Shown here piece by piece: positions 1 through 6,403 of a stretch of 6,403 nucleotides of DNA (position 1 is its first letter; each line of letters begins with the position of its first letter). The stretch is taken from the IMG/VR virus record IMGVR_UViG_3300035492_000278, positions 1 through 6,403 of that record. One strand, given 5' to 3'. A model generated the notes under the pieces. That model saw only the letters and a list, made by a program, of their open reading frames with translations, was not told the origin of the DNA and made no database searches. The position numbers and the translations under genes were made by a program. The DNA is from a virus.

Positions 1-107
1 ACTATAATTAATCCATACCTAGCCGGGATGGAGTAACCGACATGACCAACGAAGAACGCCAGTTCCACCTACGGATGGCAGAGAACATCGAAGCACGCGC
101 GAACGCC
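1..107. repeat. Terminal redundancy copy 1 (identical to 6297-6403)
   Basis: Base-by-base comparison with offset 6296: actataattaatccatacc...gcacgcgcgaacgcc occurs at both ends of the window. Confidence 0.95.
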
Positions 108-209
108 ATCATCGAACAAGTTCGGCGTGGCGAGAAAAATAAAGCGATGCTGAAAACCGCCCATGCACAACTGGCAGACGCCAAGCGAATCAGAGGATGG
201 GCGAAATGA
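42..209 (+). CDS. 55-aa highly charged, apparently all-helical small protein of unknown function (MTNEERQFHLRMAENIEARANAIIEQVRRGEKNKAMLKTAHAQLADAKRIRGWAK); first gene of the plus-strand module
   Basis: ATG at 42 is preceded by GGAG (30-33) with an 8-nt spacer. The stop TGA (207-209) overlaps the ATG at 206 of the next ORF as ATGA. The ORF is below the size cut-off of the supplied track and was hand-translated. Confidence 0.55.
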   Translation: MTNEERQFHLRMAENIEARANAIIEQVRRGEKNKAMLKTAHAQLADAKRIRGWAK

Positions 210-784
210 TCGAACCAGCAGACCGCCAGACCCAACCCCTACCACTGGACGAGCAGCCGGCCAAGCCGCGCCGTGGTCGACCAGCAACCGGCAAGGCGCT
301 GAGCAACGCCGAGCGGCAACGGCTCTACCGTGAACGCCAGAAAGCGCAACGTAACGAAAAATCGGACAAGCACCCAGTGCCATACGAAGAAGTAGTTGCC
401 ATTGCCCAGGAGCTGGCGGAGCGCTGCAAGCGCGCCGAGGATCGGCAAGACGAGTTGCACGACCAGGTGCAAAAGATGCTGCTTCAGCGTGACGAACTGA
501 TCCGCGAATGTCGGAAACTCAAGAAGGAATTAGCGTCAAGCAAGACCGTTGCGAAAACAAAGCGCCACCGCGACGAAACGCCAAACGTAATGAAGCAATA
601 CCACGCCCAGAATTGGGATGCGAAAGCGCGGAAATGGCGAACAATCGGCGACAGCGAGCCCGATAACCAGCCATTCGACGACTGGAAGGAAGCCGAAGAA
701 TTTATAAAACGATTGCTGAACAACGGTTCGAAATCGCGATACAGGATCGTGCCGGCAAACCTGACCATAATTGAATATAAGTAA
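206..784 (+). CDS. 192-aa putative DNA-binding regulator or accessory protein. It has an AT-hook-like PRRGRPATGK, an Arg-rich helix SNAERQRLYRERQKAQR, a central coiled-coil-like segment and an unassigned ~65-aa C-terminal domain
   Basis: The ORF track lists 197-784. I prefer ATG 206 (GAGGA at 193-197, 8-nt spacer, ATGA overlap with the upstream stop) over ATG 197, which has no spacer after the purine run. No helix-turn-helix is recognisable by eye and I cannot assign a family. Confidence 0.6.
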   Translation: MIEPADRQTQPLPLDEQPAKPRRGRPATGKALSNAERQRLYRERQKAQRNEKSDKHPVPYEEVVAIAQELAERCKRAEDRQDELHDQVQKMLLQRDELIRECRKLKKELASSKTVAKTKRHRDETPNVMKQYHAQNWDAKARKWRTIGDSEPDNQPFDDWKEAEEFIKRLLNNGSKSRYRIVPANLTIIEYK

Positions 785-795
785 CGTAACTATAA
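781..795. repeat. Motif copy immediately after the 206-784 stop. GTAACGTAAC (781-790) is the reverse complement of GTTACGTTAC at 6264-6273. ACGTAACTATAA (784-795) is a direct copy of 6292-6303
   Basis: Exact string matches found by eye. Function unknown (operator, recombination site or chance). Confidence 0.6.
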
Positions 796-815
796 ATCGA
801 GAATGGATCTAGAAG

Positions 816-873
816 CCGCCTGCAAGGCCTCAGGCGGAAACCGGGTCCCTCCCGCAAGCGGGAGCCCTCCCGG
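816..873. terminator. Two tandem GC-rich hairpins in the gap between the convergent genes 206-784 (+) and Zot/pI (-)
   Basis: Hairpin 1: CCGCCTG (816-822) pairs with CAGGCGG (831-837). Hairpin 2: CTCCCG (849-854), loop caag, CGGGAG (859-864), extended by CCGGG (841-845) pairing with CCCGG (869-873). On the minus strand hairpin 2 starts directly after the Zot stop (874-876) and is followed by TTT. U-tracts are short, so terminator efficiency is uncertain. Confidence 0.5.
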
Positions 874-2001
874 TTATCCGCCTGAGGACTTGTCAGGAGT
901 CTTGCTGGCTAGCGATACAGTCGGCAGCGCAGAGACCACGAACCCTAGATCGAGGTCTTTGTATCGCAACGCAATAACCGTCTCGGACTGGTAGCTGATC
1001 TGATAGCCGGCATCCGTAAGCTCGCGAAACGAGACCTGTCGGATCGGCTGGCCGTTTTGAGTTACGGTGATGTAGCCGTTAAGGTACGGCACGCCGGAAC
1101 GCTGGCCATGCATGAGCGCCGATAGAAACAGATCATAACCCTGATATGGGTGGAGCTGCTGCGCAGGCCCACGGGGAACGGCAACATCCGCTGGCACTGC
1201 GTCGGGCGCCGTAGGCGCCGGAGCGAATGAAATCGACGGAGAGACGGCCTTGGGCACCGAATGGACCGCTGGCCTGTCCCTGGTCAACTGATAGATGACC
1301 AGACCGACAACGATAAACGCGCAGATAGCGGCACCCTTGAACGGCCACCGCTTCCAAAGCGGGACAATATCGCCAGCGGTCAATTCCTCCGCCGCCGCGC
1401 TGGACTTAGTGTGAGACCGATAGAACTTGAAAAACTTGGCCTCGTATTCACGGATGGCGGTATTGACCACCTCCCCCCGAACACCGTCCTGCACCTTACG
1501 AATGTAGCGTTTCGAGGTTCCAAACGCAGTCGCTTTCTTGCAGCGGTAGACCACTTGAACCAGATCAATGACGGCTCGATTCACCTTGCCATACGACTGG
1601 GTAATAAGCAGCACGTCAGCAAGCTCGTGACGGTGCATCGAATACCACTCTTCGACCAGGCGCTGCCGCGGAACATCGGCGCGATCAACAACAGCGCGAG
1701 GCATAGCCAGGTGGCATTCATCGATAACGTAGAGCGGACCCACGCCAGACTCAGGATGGCGCCACGGGTCGCCGTAGTGATCGACGCGCGAAAACGGCCG
1801 AACGAGTACGCCGTCATCAAGCTGCGGGTGAAGGAGCTGAATCAGCCTGGACGCTCCGGGGAAATAGGCCTCGATAACGTCGACCTGTAACGGGAGGTTG
1901 GTAATGACGCGGCGACCATCGACCAGGGCTGGAATAACGTGGAACGCCACCGCCTCATACGATTTACCGCCACCAGGCTGACCAAGAATCAAATTGATCA
2001 T
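874..2001 (-). CDS. Zot / pI-family P-loop NTPase, the inner-membrane assembly/extrusion protein (gene I analogue), 375 aa
   Basis: N-terminal Walker A MINLILGQPGGGKSYEAV, Walker B-like PLYVIDECH, and a single TM segment GAAICAFIVVGLVIYQL after the ATPase domain. ATG at 2001 overlaps the upstream stop as TAATG. The track ORF extends to 2217, but that extension overlaps the pVI-like gene and would bury the P-loop 72 aa into the protein. Confidence 0.9.
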   Translation of the reverse strand: MINLILGQPGGGKSYEAVAFHVIPALVDGRRVITNLPLQVDVIEAYFPGASRLIQLLHPQLDDGVLVRPFSRVDHYGDPWRHPESGVGPLYVIDECHLAMPRAVVDRADVPRQRLVEEWYSMHRHELADVLLITQSYGKVNRAVIDLVQVVYRCKKATAFGTSKRYIRKVQDGVRGEVVNTAIREYEAKFFKFYRSHTKSSAAAEELTAGDIVPLWKRWPFKGAAICAFIVVGLVIYQLTRDRPAVHSVPKAVSPSISFAPAPTAPDAVPADVAVPRGPAQQLHPYQGYDLFLSALMHGQRSGVPYLNGYITVTQNGQPIRQVSFRELTDAGYQISYQSETVIALRYKDLDLGFVVSALPTVSLASKTPDKSSGG

Positions 2002-2339
2002 TACGACCCCCAGCGAACGAACGGGATTGTCTGGAGCGTGAACCGCACAACTAGCGCTCCGACGACAATGGTAAGCGCCTGAGTGACGCCGATCGCACCC
2101 ATCATTTGCGCAGTCTCGGGCGGAATCAGCGAATAATACGTTTGCGGGTCGAACGGAACATCTATCGCATTGAGCGCAGCGACAGCGATACCCATAAGCC
2201 CCTCGAACAACCAACAAACAACATCAGTTGCCATATTCCACGCATCGACGAATATCTGCTTAAAGACAGCCAGAAACCAACTAGCAAGCTGGGAGAACTT
2301 TGCGAGCAAAGACGTAAAGAATTGTCCAAGTGCAGCCAT
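2001..2339 (-). CDS. pVI-like hydrophobic minor coat protein (gene VI analogue), 112 aa
   Basis: Positioned between the pIII-like and pI-like genes. The protein is very hydrophobic (MAALGQFFTSLLAKFSQLASWFLAVFKQIF...). ATG 2339 lies 6 nt after GGAGG, which is embedded in the last codons of the pIII-like gene. The track start at 2369 is a TTG without an SD. Confidence 0.75.
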   Translation of the reverse strand: MAALGQFFTSLLAKFSQLASWFLAVFKQIFVDAWNMATDVVCWLFEGLMGIAVAALNAIDVPFDPQTYYSLIPPETAQMMGAIGVTQALTIVVGALVVRFTLQTIPFVRWGS

Positions 2340-2340
2340 A

Positions 2341-3741
2341 TCAGCCTCCGAACGTAAGAGCACGCGCAAGGAAAACAGCCGAAACTATAAGAACCGTTTT
2401 GATAAATTCAAATATCCAACACATGTTCCAGAAAGAAATCGTGCCGTAATTGGCCCAACTAGCGATATTGAATTGAAGGCTAAATGTCGGACAACTACCG
2501 CTGAAATTTGGAACAAAGGAAGAGAGAAAAGCCAGAAATGCAGAATTTTCTATGTTCGAACTAACGCTATGCCAAACACCCGCTAGACCATCGGGATATT
2601 TCTGCTGATAGAACGGCTCGACTTCTGGCATATCAGCATCAGAATATTCAATAGCGCCTTCGTCCTGATCTTGCTCTTCGGTAACTTCCTCGGGGTCGGT
2701 CTTAGTTTCAGTTTCGGTGGTACCATCTGGATTAGTTGTAGTTACTGTCGACGTTTTGCGATAGTCGTAATAGTTATCACCGTAGGTAATGTCGATCTGA
2801 GTGTTAGTTGTAGAGCTGGTGGTTCCACCTGGACCAGTAGTAGTGATGGCCGGGCCCTTTTCAGTGAGCGTTGATGGGCCCTCGAGCTGCGTTGACGTGC
2901 GCAACTCCTGATAACAGGACTCAGGAGCGAGAGAGCCCTCGCAGTGCTCGCGAAGCCGATCTTTGAGCCATTCGGAATCTTGAGCGGCAGCGGCGGCCTC
3001 CATCAGATCGAAATCCGCATCGGTCGCAGCGCGATAACCACCCGCAGCCTCGCACGCACCAGTAGAACTGTTATAGGTAGAACCCGCAGGGCACGAGTCG
3101 CCATAACGCTGAATAGAGACCCTGGATTCATAGCCATCAGATTCACGTTTCGCAATACAACGATACTGAGTATCGGAAACGCGCTCTAGGCGATCATAGA
3201 CATAGTCATTTCGCCAGCCCGCTGCAGCAATCTGAGAGCAAACCTCGACAGGTGTTAAGCCGGTATAGAAACTGGATGTACCGTCCGAACCAATATGTTC
3301 CGTCGCACTTTTCCAATAATAACCGCCAGGAACAGGACTGCCCGAGGCTGGAACTTTAACTTGCCCATCGTCAATAATTCCGTCAACCGCATCGAGCATA
3401 TATTGCAGACCAATACTTAGCCCGACACCAACTACACCGCCACGCAAGGACCCAGACATGCCCTTGATAGTGCGAGGAATCGAATAATCATATTTCGGCT
3501 TAATGGGCAACCTGGTGCCCTTGGAGCCGCCGCCATAGGACGACGGAATATATTCACCGTCCAGGGGCTGCCCGGTGATGATCAACGAATCACCGGACTT
3601 CGCAGCACTACCGCTGCCAACTACCGAACCGTTGGACGGCAGAGAAACATATTTGCGAGTGGCAGCATGCAATTGGGTGCTAGAGAAAATAGCCAGCACT
3701 GCAATCAAAAACGCTGCCGGATACCGGAGATAAATGCCCAT
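2341..3741 (-). CDS. pIII-like adsorption / minor coat protein (gene III analogue), 466 aa
   Basis: Signal peptide MGIYLRYPAAFLIAVLAIFSSTQLHA|AT. Cys-containing N-terminal domains, a Thr/Gly-rich then acidic linker (TTTGPGGTTSSTTNT...TETETKTDPEEVTEEQDQDEG), and a C-terminal hydrophobic anchor IKTVLIVSAVFLARALTFGG. GGAGGGG lies 10 nt upstream of the ATG, and the position after the coat gene is as expected. Confidence 0.8.
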   Translation of the reverse strand: MGIYLRYPAAFLIAVLAIFSSTQLHAATRKYVSLPSNGSVVGSGSAAKSGDSLIITGQPLDGEYIPSSYGGGSKGTRLPIKPKYDYSIPRTIKGMSGSLRGGVVGVGLSIGLQYMLDAVDGIIDDGQVKVPASGSPVPGGYYWKSATEHIGSDGTSSFYTGLTPVEVCSQIAAAGWRNDYVYDRLERVSDTQYRCIAKRESDGYESRVSIQRYGDSCPAGSTYNSSTGACEAAGGYRAATDADFDLMEAAAAAQDSEWLKDRLREHCEGSLAPESCYQELRTSTQLEGPSTLTEKGPAITTTGPGGTTSSTTNTQIDITYGDNYYDYRKTSTVTTTNPDGTTETETKTDPEEVTEEQDQDEGAIEYSDADMPEVEPFYQQKYPDGLAGVWHSVSSNIENSAFLAFLSSFVPNFSGSCPTFSLQFNIASWANYGTISFWNMCWIFEFIKTVLIVSAVFLARALTFGG

Positions 3742-3827
3742 GCGCCAATTACCCCTCCGAGAAACACAAGAGAATATGAGAGCGTTGCAAAATCCGCGCT
3801 AGTGACTGCAAACGTAATTTCGTTCAT
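3705..3827 (-). CDS. Candidate 40-aa coat-like membrane peptide (MNEITFAVTSADFATLSYSLVFLGGVIGAWAFISGIRQRF) overlapping the gene III start
   Basis: Hand-translated and not in the ORF track. It has the same architecture as the major coat (acidic N-terminus, one TM segment, basic C-terminus), and its N-terminus MNEITFAV resembles the coat's MTEIFAAV. There is no Shine-Dalgarno, and the ATG sits 5 nt after the terminator T-tract, so translation is doubtful. Confidence 0.3.
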   Translation of the reverse strand: MNEITFAVTSADFATLSYSLVFLGGVIGAWAFISGIRQRF

Positions 3828-3831
3828 TAAT

Positions 3832-3852
3832 AAAAAAGGGGCCGCAGCCCCC
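3832..3852 (-). terminator. Rho-independent terminator after the major coat gene
   Basis: The minus strand reads GGGGC-tgcg-GCCCC followed by TTTTTT (plus-strand A6 at 3832-3837), 22 nt downstream of the coat stop. A terminator after gene VIII is the classic inovirus arrangement. Confidence 0.65.
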
Positions 3853-3873
3853 TTTCCTCCACCATTAAGGGAG

Positions 3874-4008
3874 TTAAGCTTTCTTCACGCCGCGCTTGCC
3901 CAGATCGATGCCTTTAAACGACATGGCAATACCGATAATGGCAACCCCGGCAGTACCAACCCAAGTAGCGACGGAAGAAAAATCCACAGCAGCGAAAATC
4001 TCGGTCAT
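3874..4008 (-). CDS. Major coat protein (gene VIII analogue), 44 aa, no cleavable leader (Pf3-like organisation): MTEIFAAVDFSSVATWVGTAGVAIIGIAMSFKGIDLGKRGVKKA
   Basis: Hand-translated and not in the ORF track. AAGGAG lies 8 nt upstream of the ATG. The protein has an acidic N-terminus, a hydrophobic core and a Lys/Arg-rich C-terminus. A terminator follows, and the gene lies between the small hydrophobic ORFs and gene III. Confidence 0.85.
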   Translation of the reverse strand: MTEIFAAVDFSSVATWVGTAGVAIIGIAMSFKGIDLGKRGVKKA

Positions 4009-4021
4009 TTTTTGTTGCTCC

Positions 4022-4150
4022 TTACAGTTTTCGAATGGCGCTGATAGCAACGCCGATGGTAAACCCCAACGCCCAACCAGAGAGCGTTAGGAAAAACCCA
4101 GCGGTATACACGGTCGTTACGCATTCGGTAGTGAGTGTCGTGCATTCCAC
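4022..4150 (-). CDS. 42-aa small hydrophobic virion-type protein (gene IX/VII analogue): MECTTLTTECVTTVYTAGFFLTLSGWALGFTIGVAISAIRKL
   Basis: GTG start at 4150 with GGAG 8 nt upstream. One TM segment and a basic C-terminus. The stop TAA (4022-4024) sits inside the coat gene's SD region. The frame is open upstream as far as the ssb stop, so the start could be further 5' (GTG at 4201). Confidence 0.5.
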   Translation of the reverse strand: MECTTLTTECVTTVYTAGFFLTLSGWALGFTIGVAISAIRKL

Positions 4151-4181
4151 TGGTACTACTCCAATACCCTGAAAAACCAAT

Positions 4182-4271
4182 TCATGACCGCGCCCACTCA
4201 CGCACGACGACGCAGACGACGAAACAGACGCCGACCCAAATCGCCAGATTGATGGTCGCGGCCCAAATCAC
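4182..4271 (-). CDS. 29-aa small hydrophobic protein (gene VII/IX analogue): MIWAATINLAIWVGVCFVVCVVVREWARS
   Basis: GTG at 4271 overlaps the ssb stop as GTGA, and GAAGG lies 7 nt upstream. The size, hydrophobicity and position match the tiny tip proteins of inoviruses. Confidence 0.45.
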   Translation of the reverse strand: MIWAATINLAIWVGVCFVVCVVVREWARS

Positions 4272-4549
4272 GACGTCGCCTTCACGGCCGCCGCCACCGG
4301 AACCAGCACGGGCCGAACCTCAAGCGAACCGAACCGAGACGGATAGAACGACTCATCATCGAGTTCATACACGCCCACCGGATAGGGACGGGCATCCTCG
4401 TCGAGCGTGATTTTGATTTTGTCGGGATAGCGAGAGCCTGCCTTGAACAAGAGCGCCTGCTGCTCGCGGATGCTGTATTCACGGCCGGTACGTTCGGATT
4501 TGCCCGAACGCTCCTTGATCTGGGTGGACTCGATTTCAATTCGTGGCAT
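4268..4549 (-). CDS. ssDNA-binding protein (gene V analogue), 93 aa
   Basis: MPRIEIESTQIKERSGKSERTGREYSIREQQALLF...PYPVGVYELDDESFYPSRFGSLEV has the size, the position (after rep, before the coat genes) and the beta-rich OB-like pattern of inovirus G5P/Pf3-type ssDNA-binding proteins. GAGG lies 9 nt upstream of ATG 4549. The track's 28-aa N-terminal extension lacks an SD. Confidence 0.7.
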   Translation of the reverse strand: MPRIEIESTQIKERSGKSERTGREYSIREQQALLFKAGSRYPDKIKITLDEDARPYPVGVYELDDESFYPSRFGSLEVRPVLVPVAAAVKATS

Positions 4550-4718
4550 TGTGGAAAACCTCACATTTAAGTTTTGAGCAGAGTTGAAATTACTACAGGG
4601 CGAAAAGTAGAACGAGCCGAAACACAACGTCAAGTATTTTTTTACACTAGTGAACTTTTCGTGTGATCCCGGTCAAAAAATCGCCCACACTGAACAGGAG
4701 TTCAACAGAGGAGAAGGC
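4550..4718. promoter_or_regulatory. AT-rich divergent control region between the ssb/structural operon (-) and the RHH gene (+)
   Basis: About 40% GC. Minus strand: TTGACG (4628-4633), 18 nt, TACTTT (4604-4609). Plus strand: TTGAAA (4584-4589), 18 nt, TAGAAC (4608-4613). Inverted repeat TGAAC-agga-GTTCA at 4691-4704, with a further GTGAAC at 4641-4646. The promoter hexamers are only partial matches. Confidence 0.35.
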
Positions 4719-4979
4719 ATGAAATCACTAAAACTCGACGACGACGATCTGCACCGACGATTCAAATTGGCATGCGTTGCCACGGGCACGCCAATGATGA
4801 CAGCAGTTCATCAAATGGTGACCGCATGGGTTGCTGACGTGGAACGACGAATACCCGATATCCGTGCAGAATCACCCGCCAGCACGGGTCGCGGTGCTCG
4901 CCGGTCGCCCGGCAGACCCAGCCGCCACCAGACGCTCGCCGCCAACGGTCAGCAGGAAATCCCCAACGACGCACCGTGA
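4719..4979 (+). CDS. Ribbon-helix-helix (CopG/Arc/MetJ-like) DNA-binding protein, 86 aa, with a low-complexity tail; candidate phage repressor
   Basis: MKSLKLDDDDLHRRFKLACVATGTPMMTAVHQMVTAWV fits the RHH pattern: a beta strand with alternating residues, helix A, a G-x-S/T/P turn and helix B. GAGGAG lies 5 nt upstream of ATG 4719. The track start at 4650 has no SD. Nucleotides 4762-4979 are antisense to the rep 3' end. Confidence 0.6.
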   Translation: MKSLKLDDDDLHRRFKLACVATGTPMMTAVHQMVTAWVADVERRIPDIRAESPASTGRGARRSPGRPSRHQTLAANGQQEIPNDAP

Positions 4980-5745
4980 CCGGCAGGTTCCACCAAGCAC
5001 GCTCGAGACGGTGAGCCATGGACAGGCCGCCAACGCCGTAGAGCCGCGCGCCTTTCGGCATCACGTCGTCAGTCCCTTTCGACGCATATTTGGCCAAATA
5101 TCCGACCGCGTTCCGTGCACGTTCGGTGCGAGTCATGCCGTGGGGCCACCAGCCGCGACGATCAGCTTTCGGCATGGAGAGACCACGACCAGCAGGGTGC
5201 CAGAATAGGCAATGGTAATGAGGACGCCCGGCCTTGGTCAGCTCCAGAACCCAGACGTAACGGACCACATGCCCCTTCCGTTTGTACCACTGCCGAACGC
5301 GCCGAATGTACTCGGAAACATGCTCAGGCTGCCAATCGACACCAGGCCGATAGGTCAGCGTGACCATGAGCGCGTGGTGCTGGCGATTTTGCATCGCCCT
5401 GGAGTGCATGCGAGCCGTCGTGATGACGTTTTTTTTCAGACGGCGCAGGCGCATCGCCTGATGGTCAATCTCGATGGCGTTTTCGTCAACAGGCCACGTT
5501 TTGGTTGGAATGCTGCAACCCCACTCATGAGGCTGCGGTACTCCTGTTTCACAGCTCGGCCGCTGACATATCGTGGGCGTTTTTTTAACGGGCGTTCCAG
5601 TTGTTTTTATATGGACAAGCCCGCGCCCTGCGGGCGCTTGCGCCGCTGCGCGGCTGATCGCGTCAGCCCGACGATTAGCAACATATTGACGGAGTTGATC
5701 GCGCGACAGGAAATCGAGCGGAGAAAGCGGGGGAATGTAAGACAC
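4762..5745 (-). CDS. HUH-superfamily rolling-circle replication initiator (gene II analogue), up to 327 aa
   Basis: Motif 1 is ALMVTLTY, motif 2 is PHYHCLFW (HUH), and motif 3 is YLAKYASK (a two-tyrosine Y-x2-K-Y-x2-K, as in the phiX174 gpA-type YVAKYVNK). The longest ORF starts at GTG 5745 without a clear SD. An in-frame ATG at 5454 (MRLRRLKK...) is an alternative start. Confidence 0.85.
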   Translation of the reverse strand: MSYIPPLSPLDFLSRDQLRQYVANRRADAISRAAAQAPAGRGLVHIKTTGTPVKKTPTICQRPSCETGVPQPHEWGCSIPTKTWPVDENAIEIDHQAMRLRRLKKNVITTARMHSRAMQNRQHHALMVTLTYRPGVDWQPEHVSEYIRRVRQWYKRKGHVVRYVWVLELTKAGRPHYHCLFWHPAGRGLSMPKADRRGWWPHGMTRTERARNAVGYLAKYASKGTDDVMPKGARLYGVGGLSMAHRLERAWWNLPVTVRRWGFPADRWRRASGGGWVCRATGEHRDPCWRVILHGYRVFVVPRQQPMRSPFDELLSSLACPWQRMPI

Positions 5746-5817
5746 AAGTGCGGTTCCGTTGCAAGTAGGCCTTGCACCGACCGCCGTTCCTATCTATCCT
5801 GCGTCTTGTCTAGAGAG

Positions 5818-5855
5818 CGCGCTATCTGCTGGGAACGGGGTGGCGCGTTTTTTTT
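5818..5855 (+). terminator. Plus-strand intrinsic-terminator-like element (10-bp stem, T8)
   Basis: 5818-5827 pairs with 5838-5847 (CGCGC/GCGCG core plus A-T and three G-U pairs) around a 10-nt loop, followed directly by T8 at 5848-5855. Confidence 0.45.
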
Positions 5856-6046
5856 CGTCCCGAGAAAACTACTCGCACGGAGTAGAAAAGGCAACCCGCG
5901 CCGAAACCGCGGAACTATCGTGACCTGCCCGTCGGAGGGGCTGACAGTCCGGGAGAGCGGCAGAGAGACGCCCGGAGCGGCCCCATTTAGGAGGATCGGG
6001 GCGCGGGTTGAGTTGGTGGCAGGACAGTAGAGCGAGGACCGCGAAC

Positions 6047-6084
6047 AGCCCCTGGCGAGCCGTTGAGGCCGTCGGGGCTTTTTT
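6047..6084 (+). terminator. Plus-strand intrinsic terminator (about 13-bp GC-rich stem, T6)
   Basis: AGCCCC (6047-6052) pairs with GGGGCT (6074-6079). The stem is extended by GGCG/CGTC (with one G-U) and GCC/GGC around the loop gttga, then the T-run 6079-6084. Confidence 0.55.
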
Positions 6085-6202
6085 CGTTGAGGGGAAATCG
6101 GCCGCTACGCGGGTATCGTCGCTGGAACCGCGAGGCAATCAGTCCAGAGCGTGCAGGCGACTAATCGCCGCAAGCGGCGAGGTCGAGGCCACCGTCAATT
6201 CT

Positions 6203-6298
6203 CGTTACGTTGCATTATATCTATCGGGCCGGGGCGGTCGATCAGAATATACAATAAATTTCCGTTACGTTACGCCGGCCTATTTATCGTTACGTAAC
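6203..6298. repeat. Array of three exact CGTTACGT copies (6203-6210, 6263-6270, 6288-6295). The third lies within the perfect 10-bp palindrome GTTACGTAAC (6289-6298); candidate operator/iteron set
   Basis: Exact 8-mers within 93 bp of AT-rich DNA directly upstream of the plus-strand module. The palindrome abuts the TATAAT box. Confidence 0.6.
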
Positions 6299-6403
6299 TA
6301 TAATTAATCCATACCTAGCCGGGATGGAGTAACCGACATGACCAACGAAGAACGCCAGTTCCACCTACGGATGGCAGAGAACATCGAAGCACGCGCGAAC
6401 GCC
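6297..6403. repeat. Terminal redundancy copy 2 (identical to 1-107). It contains a duplicate of the first 66 nt of the 42-209 CDS at 6338-6403
   Basis: Exact match to 1-107. This is the signature of a circular molecule linearised with overlap, not a biological LTR. Confidence 0.95.
6299..6304 (+). promoter_or_regulatory. Putative -10 box TATAAT for the 42-209 / 206-784 operon (same bases as 3-8)
   Basis: Perfect sigma70 -10 consensus 38 nt upstream of ATG 42. There is no good -35 (TTTCCG/TTTATC at best), so the site may be activator- or extended-context dependent. Confidence 0.4.

Follow-up and report, generated by a model that had tools for sequence, protein, structure and literature searches.

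Anti-defence genes have mostly been found through their association with regulators, and all of the regulators associated with anti-CRISPRs (Acr) were of the helix-turn-helix (HTH) type until a preprint added Aca14, a ribbon-helix-helix (RHH) protein, to the HTH proteins Aca1-13 (bioRxiv 10.64898/2026.07.27.740549). The HTH repressors of inoviruses include RstR of CTXphi, Pf4r and those of the phiRSM ORF15 type (PMC4471427). Filamentous phages and prophages of Ralstonia and Cupriavidus were known to carry another protein, the phiRSS1 ORF11-like or AT-hook protein; a regulatory role was postulated for this family, and no function, binding site or cargo slot was described for it (PMC4471427, PMC10011098).

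Here we analysed a stretch of DNA of 6,403 nt, referred to as the window, which comprises a phage of 6296 nt and the first 107 nt of its repetition, as positions 1-107 recur unchanged at 6297-6403, and forms the beginning of an 18.5-kb contig with three inovirus units. On balance, we favour reading positions 1-800 together with 6204-6304 as a self-regulated accessory operon in an inovirus of the Pseudomonas type, which resembles an acr-aca operon with a non-HTH regulator. The operon has two genes, encoding proteins of 55 and 192 aa; the promoter/operator arrays and the tracking of a helix residue by the operator half-site are new. The 192-aa protein is a probable non-HTH counterpart, in filamentous phages, of the anti-CRISPR-associated regulators. 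The features are as follows, in coordinates of the window.

42-209, plus strand: gene of the 55-aa protein, the putative cargo; Shine-Dalgarno GGAG at 30-33; helical hairpin predicted; under purifying selection
206-784, plus strand: gene of the 192-aa putative regulator; Shine-Dalgarno GAGGA at 193-197; ATGA overlap with the preceding stop
272-283, plus strand: codons of the invariant RGRP (AT-hook-like arm, residues 23-26)
305-355, plus strand: codons of the basic, putative recognition helix (residues 34-50, NAERQRLYRERQKAQRN), with R or K at residue 37 depending on the class of the operator
346-355: operator-like copy inside the gene, GCAACGTAAC (reverse complement GTTACGTTGC, equal to O3), coded by Q48-R49-N50
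383-550, plus strand: codons of a helix of 56 residues (60-115), presumably the coiled coil through which the protein dimerises
599-754, plus strand: codons of the beta-beta-alpha-beta domain at the C-terminus (residues 132-183), which diverges fast and is exchanged between relatives
781-797: near-copy of O1 plus the -10 box, GTAACGTAACTATAAAT, overlapping and following the stop codon
823-892: inverted repeat of 23 nt between the convergent regulator gene and gene I (Zot), a probable bidirectional terminator
874-2001, minus strand: Zot gene (gene I), converging on the 3' end of the 192-aa gene
4719-4979, plus strand: conserved RHH ORF
6204-6213: putative distal operator O3, GTTACGTTGC, with an AT-rich 5' flank (AATTCTC), over the start of the leftward promoter, which is predicted near 6207
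6214-6241, minus strand: leftward sigma70-like promoter towards Rep; -35 TCGACC at 6241-6236, 16-nt spacer, -10 TATAAT at 6219-6214
6264-6273: putative operator O2, GTTACGTTAC, 25 bp start-to-start upstream of O1, with its centre at ~-42 from the transcription start predicted near position 15 of the window
6289-6298: putative operator O1, the one nearest to the promoter, a perfect palindrome (GTTACGTAAC) that directly adjoins the -10 box, with positions 1-2 of the window as its final two bases
6299-6304 (equal to 3-8 of the window), plus strand: -10 box TATAAT of the operon promoter, with no good -35 hexamer
6338-6403, plus strand: beginning only of a second identical copy of the 55-aa gene, in the next contig unit

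The gene pair and its setting

Both ORFs were found where the original prediction had placed them, and both are conserved coding genes. Their stop and start codons overlap in ATGA (TGA of the small ORF at 207-209 and ATG of the large ORF at 206-208), and the coupled expression that had been proposed is in agreement with what appears to be a co-transcribed unit. An alternative in-frame ATG for the 192-aa gene, at position 197, was chosen by the JGI gene call; however, nearly all homologues start at the residue equivalent to 206 (MID/MIE...) rather than 197. For the small ORF, dN/dS values of 0.05-0.12 were obtained against homologues differing from it at up to 51 of 165 nucleotide positions.

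The pair does occupy the accessory slot that had been suggested, with gene I on one side and the intergenic region on the other, and the Zot-adjacent placement of the regulator gene was also identified in loci L001, L002, L003 and L089. It is not, as had been claimed, the only sizeable coding capacity on the plus strand outside the backbone, since a conserved RHH ORF is found at 4719-4979. An Rfam search of the window did not find known RNAs.

Two small overlapping genes in an accessory slot could also be read as a toxin-antitoxin or addiction, abortive-infection or superinfection-exclusion module acting on the host, and inoviruses do carry toxin-antitoxin pairs and exclusion genes (PMC6813254). 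Such a module is, in our judgement, very improbable at this locus. All signals of a toxin, an antitoxin or a defence system were missing from profile searches (Pfam, NCBIfam and PADLOC), which goes against the addiction-type module initially considered, and the 55-aa protein is predicted to be a soluble helical hairpin with no membrane segment. Moreover, the genes are not conserved as a pair: the 55-aa gene is carried by 5 of 80 IMG/VR loci, while in most relatives the regulator stands alone or with unrelated partners, and an obligate two-gene module was not supported.

Family and architecture of the 192-aa protein

The earlier statement that the pair has no recognisable family was not supported, as the 192-aa protein matched the uncharacterised phrog_10506 (E 3.3e-20). 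By its sequence, it is a phiRSS1 ORF11-like / AT-hook protein encoded downstream of pI and belongs to an uncharacterised inovirus family. The related PHROGs of the family are 10506, 9651, 23279 and 6334. Using tblastn, relatives were identified in WX_Y (64% identity), 5a-DAzarov, 42-1 and RS603 (ORF11, 33% identity); 209 homologues were found, a scan of genome contigs gave 9 loci, and the N-terminal motif was present in ~190 sequence clusters. The N-terminal motif common to the window protein and this family is MxDxxDxQT...RGRP...A..A..Q..YR. Residues G24, R25 and P26 were invariant across 116 family sequences, and in 130 further cluster representatives G24 and R25 were invariant and P26 nearly so, with the motif always located within residues 1-50.

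Among the features that had been noticed, the AT-hook-like core RGRP (nt 272-283) was confirmed, as were the long helix and the basic stretch, the helices by AlphaFold2, which placed them at residues 34-50 and 60-115 (pLDDT 94-98) with a proline-containing loop (residues 51-59) parting the basic helix from the coiled coil. The window protein showed no match to PF02178 (AT-hook), and the RS603 homologue reached 17.1 bits against a cut-off of 17.4. The absence of an HTH agreed with the prediction, as none was found in Pfam, and neither an HTH nor an RHH family was detected in Pfam or NCBIfam at E<=10; searches of both window proteins against Pfam, NCBIfam and PADLOC returned coiled-coil noise only.

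The C-terminus, which could not be placed originally, was modelled by AlphaFold2 as a small beta-beta-alpha-beta domain at residues 132-183. When the 192-aa model was searched with Foldseek, nothing significant was found in the PDB (the top hit was PaaB, E 0.58), and only uncharacterised phage proteins of 55-75 aa, one DUF2188 protein among them, were found in BFVD (E 0.02-0.2). A DUF2188 identity of the C-terminal domain was not recovered by Pfam searches of ten variants of this domain. Across the family, the median identity was 69% for the N-terminal 52 aa and 22% for the C-terminal 58 aa, with swaps both ways. Regulators of less than 120 aa, which are devoid of the C-terminal domain, were found in 7 of 30 loci with cargo versus 1 of 52 without cargo (p=0.003). 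Sequences and models together point to an autoregulator in which the RGRP arm and a basic helix are joined to a coiled coil and to a C-terminal domain that varies.

A basic helix with a coiled coil after it may alternatively indicate a true bZIP homologue reading a TTACGTAA-type site, which we find hardly credible. N34-x7-R42 is present in the window protein, where Q38, Y41 and R42 are fully or almost invariant, its putative target has an ACGT core, and the basic region presumably resembles the Yap/Pap1 basic region and TTACGTAA site. However, no bZIP family was detected in Pfam at E<=10, and the family profile gave coiled-coil noise only against PDB sequences (E>0.02), and on these profile searches bZIP homology was rejected. 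In addition, over half of the family members have P, A or D in place of N34, and the loop at residues 51-59 makes the basic helix and the coiled coil discontinuous.

Promoter, operators and the basic helix

The motif CGTTACGT was observed 5 times in the window versus 0.29 expected by chance. Upstream of the regulator gene, a palindrome of 10-14 bp abuts TATAAT in ~110 loci, including those of the isolated phages WX_Y, 42-1 and RS603, and two more copies are present further upstream.

The left half-site of the operator was found to follow the basic helix, being GTTAC in 44/44 cases with AER or ADR helices and GTAAC in 58/58 cases with AEK helices, the latter including three separate N-A-E-K lineages. 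The class C helix DAERARRYRANKK pairs with GTGACGCGTCAC, the RS603 helix pairs with GTTAC-A-GTAAC, and the class-B operator site is GTAACGTTAC. All three upstream copies change class together, and in the perfect palindromes both half-sites change symmetrically, which would be expected if a dimer were bound there. An extra class-specific copy inside or just after the gene was identified in 33 of 44 class-B genes, against ~0.02 expected. The association of R37 with GTTAC and of K37 with GTAAC may represent a one-residue/one-base recognition rule, and O1 is a hybrid (GTTACGTTAC) at thirteen loci of class A, which leaves this 'code' strict for the left half-site only. As the operator and the helix codons are ~100-300 bp apart and thus co-inherited, the covariation could partly reflect linkage in a few clades instead of co-adaptation.

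This class-specific covariation between operator and basic helix, in more than 100 loci, points to an autoregulator. It supports the view that the large protein is a DNA-binding regulator without an HTH, for which the CGTTACGT sites, as had been suggested, very probably serve as targets. From sequence and models we infer DNA binding, repression and dimerisation, as well as any anti-defence activity of the operon proteins. The pairing of residue to base across more than 100 natural variants provides a testable rule of protein-DNA recognition.

The operators are located at the margin of a conserved intergenic block with many hairpins, and the 192-aa protein could accordingly be viewed as a replication or maintenance factor acting on intergenic repeats, a role to which we assign a small chance. 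The homologue in phage 42-1 is annotated as 'RepB replication regulatory protein', a label traceable to no profile, and the N-terminal motif heads ~95-aa proteins of tiny Aeromonas plasmids in which rep is the only other gene. However, no match to Pfam RepB-RCR_reg or to any replication family was obtained at E<=10, and the operator class is independent of the Rep family. Rep of the Phage_CRI type accompanies class A in 23 loci and class B in 27 loci, and the class A operators of the window accompany a different Rep family. Because the same Rep type occurs with both classes, and the class of the window with another Rep, the operators are not Rep sites, and Rep iterons were rejected. It also speaks against a replication factor that, in every lineage, the sites lie on core elements of the gene's own promoter, which is a signature of transcriptional autoregulation.

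A larger, though still low, chance is given to the 192-aa protein being the master lysogeny or immunity repressor, which would mainly shut the leftward promoter (6241-6214) to Rep and the structural genes, with the rightward operon serving just for its own expression and the 55-aa protein as a cofactor or anti-repressor. The site at 6204-6213 covers the predicted start of the sole sigma70-like leftward promoter found from the operon to Rep, the arrangement of three operators flanked by divergent promoters recalls classical phage switches, the regulator is present in most relatives even where there is no cargo, and an HTH repressor is absent from the window's phage. On the other hand, the leftward promoter with its adjacent site is conserved in a subset only (~10 of 77 distinct upstream regions), so it was rejected as a general feature, and two terminator-like hairpins were found between this promoter and Rep. 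Relatives such as phage 42-1 and contig unit 2 have, beside Rep, a further small regulator with its own repeats, and the few operator classes among co-occurring phages would lead to broad cross-immunity. Furthermore, the 55-aa gene remains 96-100% identical while the coiled coil and C-terminus of its partner vary, which argues against a specific complex with those parts.

In the autoregulated accessory operon that we favour, the promoter would consist of a perfect -10 box, with no usable -35, on which three operators of the form GTTACGT(A/T)(A/G)C are superimposed at ~-17, -42 and -102. Two copies of the product of the second gene would pair through the 56-residue coiled coil, each basic helix (residues 34-50) lying in the major groove of one GTTAC half-site and the invariant RGRP arm being placed in the AT-rich flank. 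Occupation of the site abutting the -10 box would switch the operon off, and the -42 site may help RNA polymerase when the level of the protein is low. The 55-aa gene would be the cargo, one among many unrelated small genes, with its output limited by the regulator.

The cargo slot and comparison with known systems

Of 82 unique complete loci, 30 had cargo in the slot; the cargo belonged to at least 10 unrelated ORF families and mostly showed the same 4-nt overlap. In ~63% of loci, the slot from the promoter to the regulator was empty, so cargo regulation cannot be the only role of the regulator. In L058, a close relative, the order is promoter/operators, AcrIC5, 55-aa ORF and regulator. The AcrIC5 was identified by Pfam PF22147 (E 2e-19) and by PDB 7YHR (E 3e-25, with about three-quarters of the printed alignment identical), and L058 is an inovirus, with a Rep 98% identical to that of unit 2 of the contig. 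With AcrIC5 in this slot, the operon would work like an acr-aca operon, and the anti-defence option, one of several in the original prediction, gained direct support from a true AcrIC5 in the same operon. The combination of AcrIC5 and regulator was seen at this one locus only; a search of IMG/VR for further ones found none besides L058, the other AcrIC5 loci lacking this regulator.

As AcrIC5 directly precedes the 55-aa gene in L058, the 55-aa protein is regarded as a candidate anti-defence factor. Its model is a helical hairpin with helices at residues 3-28 and 36-53 (pLDDT 96), for which Foldseek returned generic helical hairpins only, such as Rop and MexA, and no significant match. Apart from AcrIC5, neither the 55-aa ORF nor the other cargo families matched anything in Pfam, NCBIfam, PADLOC or the PDB, including, for the 55-aa ORF, any known Acr; the other cargo families did not match solved Acr structures either.

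Going further, and only tentatively, the family could be an unrecognised class of non-HTH, non-RHH anti-defence regulators that mark islands in filamentous phages, at which the cargo, including the 55-aa hairpin, and possibly the C-terminal domain would be new effectors. It would be the first such case in inoviruses, for which a single systematic test was found, with no Acr activity detected among ten candidates (PMC6813254). If this is true, at least 10 small protein families are nominated as candidate anti-defence factors in filamentous phages, and the new regulator design, with its N-terminal motif and the palindrome at the -10 box, provides a new search handle for anti-defence genes. A first functional proposal is also made for the phiRSS1 ORF11-like gene, which since 2007 has been annotated as 'hypothetical' in filamentous phages of plant pathogens and of Pseudomonas.

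The 192-aa gene shares with the phiRSS1 ORF11-like family its neighbour, gene I, and the palindrome abutting the -10 box; however, in Ralstonia both it and gene I are encoded on one strand, whereas in the window the two converge. Similar to the inovirus HTH repressors, it is located on the strand opposite to the backbone, next to the intergenic region, with multiple operators and possibly a divergent promoter. It differs from them in its fold and in its position beside gene I rather than beside Rep, and some relatives carry both.

Compared with the eukaryotic bZIP factors (Yap/Pap1), the logic is the same, with a basic helix leading to a dimerising coiled coil on a short palindrome with an ACGT core, but there is no detectable sequence relationship, the helix is discontinuous and the family of the 192-aa protein does not conserve the signature Asn. 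AcrIIA1, AcrIIA13-15 and AcrIF24 are autorepressor-anti-CRISPR fusion proteins, in which a conserved, self-repressing DNA-binding N-terminus (HTH) is joined to diverging C-termini. The 192-aa protein likewise combines a conserved N-terminus with a diverging C-terminus, although its N-terminus is not an HTH and none of the C-terminal domains of its family is known to be inhibitory.

As in the case of the Aca regulators, the putative regulator is encoded by the last gene of an operon with small, variable and unrelated upstream genes, and in L058 a member of its family occurs with a gene of the validated AcrIC5 family. The inverted repeats of Aca14 overlap the -10 box, and those of the window operon are likewise on the core promoter. 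Unlike the HTH or RHH Aca proteins, the 192-aa protein has an RGRP arm and one basic helix instead, to which a long coiled coil and, at the C-terminus, an additional domain are attached, and its family occurs in inoviruses and small plasmids, at which most of the loci carry the regulator without cargo.

Genes of the operon and of the phage unit

The window, 6403 nt long, opens a JGI metagenome contig of 18.5 kb (3300035491, Ga0376444_000753; here referred to as L004), in which three inovirus-like units follow in succession. One phage unit is 6296 nt long, with window positions 1-107 identical to 6297-6403. Its genes are as follows.

Genes of the window
42-209, plus: 55-aa ORF, ATG at 42, stop TGA at 207-209, GGAG ahead of the start
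206-784, plus: 192-aa ORF, ATG at 206, GAGGA at 193-197 ahead of the start, ATGA overlap with the 55-aa ORF
874-2001, minus: Zot/gene I
4762-5745, minus: Rep of the REP_ORF2-G2P family
minus-strand backbone: ssDNA-binding protein, coat genes, g3 and a DUF2523 g6-like gene

The original prediction of a plus-strand pair with an ATGA stop/start overlap was confirmed at 42-209 and 206-784, where each ORF is a real gene. Databases yielded no more than about ten relatives of the 55-aa ORF, each at least 69% identical, compared with which synonymous changes are saturating and non-synonymous ones few (dN/dS 0.05-0.12); AlphaFold2 folds its product confidently as a helical hairpin (pLDDT 96). For the 192-aa ORF, one search returned 209 relatives, mainly on contigs of about 7 kb and in Pseudomonas genomes, and the start of the homologues matches position 206, not the alternative ATG at 197.

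The second unit of the contig has the operon and the Zot/g6/g3 genes in common with the window's unit, but its Rep is of the Phage_CRI type and its ssDNA-binding protein of PF17878, where the window's unit has REP_ORF2-G2P and PF02303. The three-unit tandem (window 1-6403; L004 1-17080) is either a true array of modular recombinants or a chimera that arose in assembly through the shared module. A ribbon-helix-helix ORF (ParG/RHH_10 matches) was also detected on the plus strand at 4719-4979, between the ssDNA-binding gene and Rep and in antisense overlap with the 3′ end of Rep. Since it shows 59% identity across all 86 aa with an ORF of the metagenome locus L146, it is probably a real second regulator missed by the gene caller. 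A hairpin-rich intergenic block of about 300-400 nt (window 5900-6200; L004 12800-13100) is kept between phage units with different Rep genes, and in many other loci an CCGACGAACGGTCG element is conserved between the operators, some 60 bp ahead of the second one. Could these be an origin, a packaging signal or an attachment site?

Family and architecture of the 192-aa protein

The 192-aa protein matches PHROG 10506 (E 3e-20), to which PHROGs 9651, 23279 and 6334 are related, these three all annotated "unknown function", as well as hypothetical proteins of Pseudomonas phages WX_Y, 5a-DAzarov and 42-1 and ORF11 of Ralstonia phage RS603. Judging from these matches, it belongs to a known, uncharacterised family, named in the literature "phiRSS1-ORF11-like ORF" (PMC4471427) and with a role merely postulated (PMC10011098), where no recognisable family had been seen at first. 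Comparison of the protein with Pfam, NCBIfam and PADLOC gave coiled-coil noise only, and its earlier reading as part of an addiction-type module is judged wrong.

The AlphaFold2 model, built from an alignment of 116 sequences (mean pLDDT 80), has the following parts.

Predicted parts of the 192-aa protein
residues 1-33: disordered N-terminus with the conserved MxDxxDxQTxxL and an invariant RGRP
residues 34-50: basic helix, followed by a proline-containing loop
residues 60-115: 56-residue helix (pLDDT 94-98), followed by a linker
residues 132-183: beta-beta-alpha-beta domain

Median identity among relatives is 69% over the first 52 residues versus 22% over the last 58. Regulator pairs with N-termini at least 85% identical usually have unrelated C-termini, and near-identical C-termini are also found on N-termini just 40% identical; recombination thus shuffles the parts of the regulator. 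A divergent beta-beta-alpha-beta domain is present in about three-quarters of family members, the rest having helical replacements or no domain. Foldseek with the 192-aa model found no significant match in PDB and, in BFVD, only many uncharacterised phage proteins of 55-75 aa.

Using the first 56 residues as a query gave 190 clusters at 50% identity, in nearly all of which the N-terminal motif occupies residues 1-50 of proteins of 58-267 aa, the exceptions having extra upstream residues. The same motif, then KNVTVT(F/L)NR, begins proteins of about 95-100 aa on small Aeromonas plasmids (94-101 aa in pAerI and L087). The 2287-bp pAerI (L086) holds only rep and the motif gene (1500-1859), ahead of which a GTCAC-C-GTGAC palindrome abuts a -10-like GATAAT, and in the MOB plasmid L087 the motif gene (4280-4612) lies directly upstream of mobC. 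Judging from these plasmid proteins and the pAerI palindrome, the motif seems to serve small mobile elements in general as an autoregulator "head".

Operators, promoter and their pairing with the basic helix

The sequence CGTTACGT occurs in 5 copies in the window versus 0.29 expected.

Operators and promoter of the window
6204-6213: distal copy O3, GTTACGTTGC
6264-6273: middle copy O2, GTTACGTTAC, centre near -42
6289-6298: proximal operator O1, GTTACGTAAC, a perfect palindrome centred near -17 and directly abutting TATAAT
6299-6304 (window 3-8): -10 box TATAAT
346-355 and 781-790: extra copies

Each of the three upstream copies has an AT-rich tract on its 5′ side. We extracted about 130 loci with a homologous gene from IMG/VR, JGI metagenomes, GTDB genomes, three isolated phages and plasmids. 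About 110 of these have, upstream of the regulator gene, a TATAAT-like hexamer with a palindrome of 10-14 bp directly against it, usually with second and third copies about 25 and 60-85 bp further upstream.

The palindromes fall into classes, each paired with its own basic helix; the GTTAC operators found with AER or ADR helices, as in the window, are referred to as class A, and the GTAAC operators found with AEK helices as class B. The helix (S/T)NAERQR or NADRQR goes with GTTAC-GT(A/T)AC in 44/44 cases and all AEK helices go with GTAAC in 58/58, counts in which operator and helix codons are physically linked and clades are not independent events. The AEK helices include T(P/A)AEKQR, paired with GTAAC-GTTAC, and three separate, distant SNAEKQR lineages; since the latter also go with GTAAC, base 3 of the left half-site is tracked by residue 37 (R or K) rather than by residue 34. 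Further pairings are (S/T)DAERARRYRANKK with GTGACGCGTCAC (WX_Y, 42-1 and L066) and the RS603 helix TNAERQAAYRARRK with GTTAC-A-GTAAC. In perfect palindromes the class changes are symmetric across both half-sites, and all upstream copies switch class together. In 33/44 unique class-B genes, versus about 0.02 expected, there is one more class-specific copy, within the gene or immediately past its stop; the in-gene copy, at about +141 to +160, is read as QRN, GNVT or VTVT. The symmetric changes, joint switching and extra copies support a dimer site that would be read by one factor. A hybrid proximal site was found in 13 class-A loci.

That the operators might be Rep iterons was ruled out: Phage_CRI-type Reps occur with class A in 23 loci and class B in 27, and the window's class A array sits with a different Rep family, unit 2 of the contig having the same array with a Phage_CRI Rep.

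In the simplest reading, the regulator would bind the operators as a coiled-coil dimer and control its own promoter, its basic helix lying in the major groove, its RGRP arm in the AT-rich flank. Since this promoter has no usable -35 and the middle and proximal sites lie near -42 and -17, the regulator might activate it at low occupancy and repress it at high. A non-canonical repressor pair was among the options first put forward; the larger protein is a non-HTH regulator that probably binds the CGTTACGT sites, as the class-specific pairing of operator and helix argues, and we consider sequence-specific autoregulation by this protein quite likely.

A near-copy of the proximal operator and -10 box (GTAACGTAACTATAAAT; 781-797 versus 6289-6305) lies on and past the regulator stop codon, and a class-specific palindrome right after the stop was also seen in L006, L068, L066 and L002. 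Such copies could be looping partners, roadblocks or recombination joints for exchange of the operon cassette. A good leftward sigma70-like promoter (6214-6241, minus), its predicted start covered by the copy at 6204-6213, is followed by two terminator-like hairpins before Rep (5869-5913, minus). It may drive Rep or an intergenic RNA of about 300 nt, and is kept in only about 10 of 77 distinct upstream regions.

The cargo slot and the acr-aca layout

Between promoter and regulator gene lies a slot that is empty in 52 of 82 unique complete loci and holds one or two small ORFs in the other 30. These ORFs fall into at least 10 unrelated families, with helical, beta-rich, very acidic and membrane-spanning types among them. 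Loci with cargo are enriched in regulators shorter than 120 aa, which have no C-terminal domain (7/30 vs 1/52, p=0.003). The 55-aa gene was found in 5/80 IMG/VR loci and a handful of other contigs, always behind a class-A promoter and, except in L007, immediately ahead of the regulator, which it overlaps by the same 4 nt. Its identity remains at 96-100%, against only 35-83% for the regulator that follows. By this distribution, the 55-aa gene is a cargo of a variable slot, and the two-gene module that had been proposed is not an obligate one.

In the slots of L007 (1007-1350), L010, L016 and L105, the first 18 regulator codons (MIEPADRQTQPLPLDEQPA) are fused ahead of an 85-aa very acidic ORF, which looks like a recombination scar showing cargo entry. 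In the 947-nt contig L093 (293-526, P0130), a relative of the 55-aa protein keeps the first 49 residues and ends in a Fis-type HTH (PF02954, E 2e-7), either a rearrangement joint or a genuine fusion.

Of the cargo families, only AcrIC5 matched anything known. In L058 (IMGVR_UViG_3300011221_000002, 7354 nt), class-A operators and TATAAT are followed by a 60-aa ORF, the 55-aa ORF and the regulator. Along its whole length the 60-aa ORF matches Pfam AcrIC5 (E 2e-19), and it also matches the crystallised AcrIC5 (PDB 7YHR; E 3e-25), with about three-quarters of aligned positions identical. AcrIC5, a Pseudomonas protein first found beside aca1, inhibits type I-C systems, as experiments have validated (PMC7913775). 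L058 is, by its gene content, an inovirus, because its Rep is 98% identical to that of unit 2 and an inovirus ssDNA-binding protein is present. As the 5′ leader of the 55-aa gene is common to L058 and the window, acrIC5 is an insertion into a window-type operon. L058 was the only locus found to join a known Acr to this regulator.

Just downstream of AcrIC5 in the tailed-phage contigs L162, L164 and L165 lie small ORFs whose K(K/R)xGRP arm, resembling the RGRP arm of the 192-aa family, precedes an RHH-like strand and helix (for example AKRGRPATPEHLKRVDVPLRLP...); they are possibly regulators of the Aca14 type. AcrIC5-like coding sequences (44-55% identity) were also seen in unannotated stretches of two Microviridae genomes (MG945373.1 3796-3951 and KT264799.1 3729-3866), and thus small ssDNA phages besides inoviruses may carry AcrIC5-type anti-CRISPRs.

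Roux et al. assayed ten hypothetical proteins of inoviruses and detected Acr activity in none (PMC6813254). Aca families were all HTH until Aca14, a ribbon-helix-helix protein with a repeat overlapping the -10 box, was reported in July 2026, in a preprint with no mention of the 192-aa protein's family, AT-hooks or inoviruses (bioRxiv 10.64898/2026.07.27.740549). Of the accessory or anti-defence unit originally suggested, the accessory slot stands, and an anti-defence role is possible given AcrIC5 in the L058 operon. That the 55-aa protein is itself an anti-defence factor seems rather unlikely. The chances come closer to even that the operon functions in the manner of an acr-aca operon with anti-defence cargo. 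Its layout is that of an acr-aca operon, in which the small genes vary, the last gene is conserved and inverted repeats lie on the core promoter.
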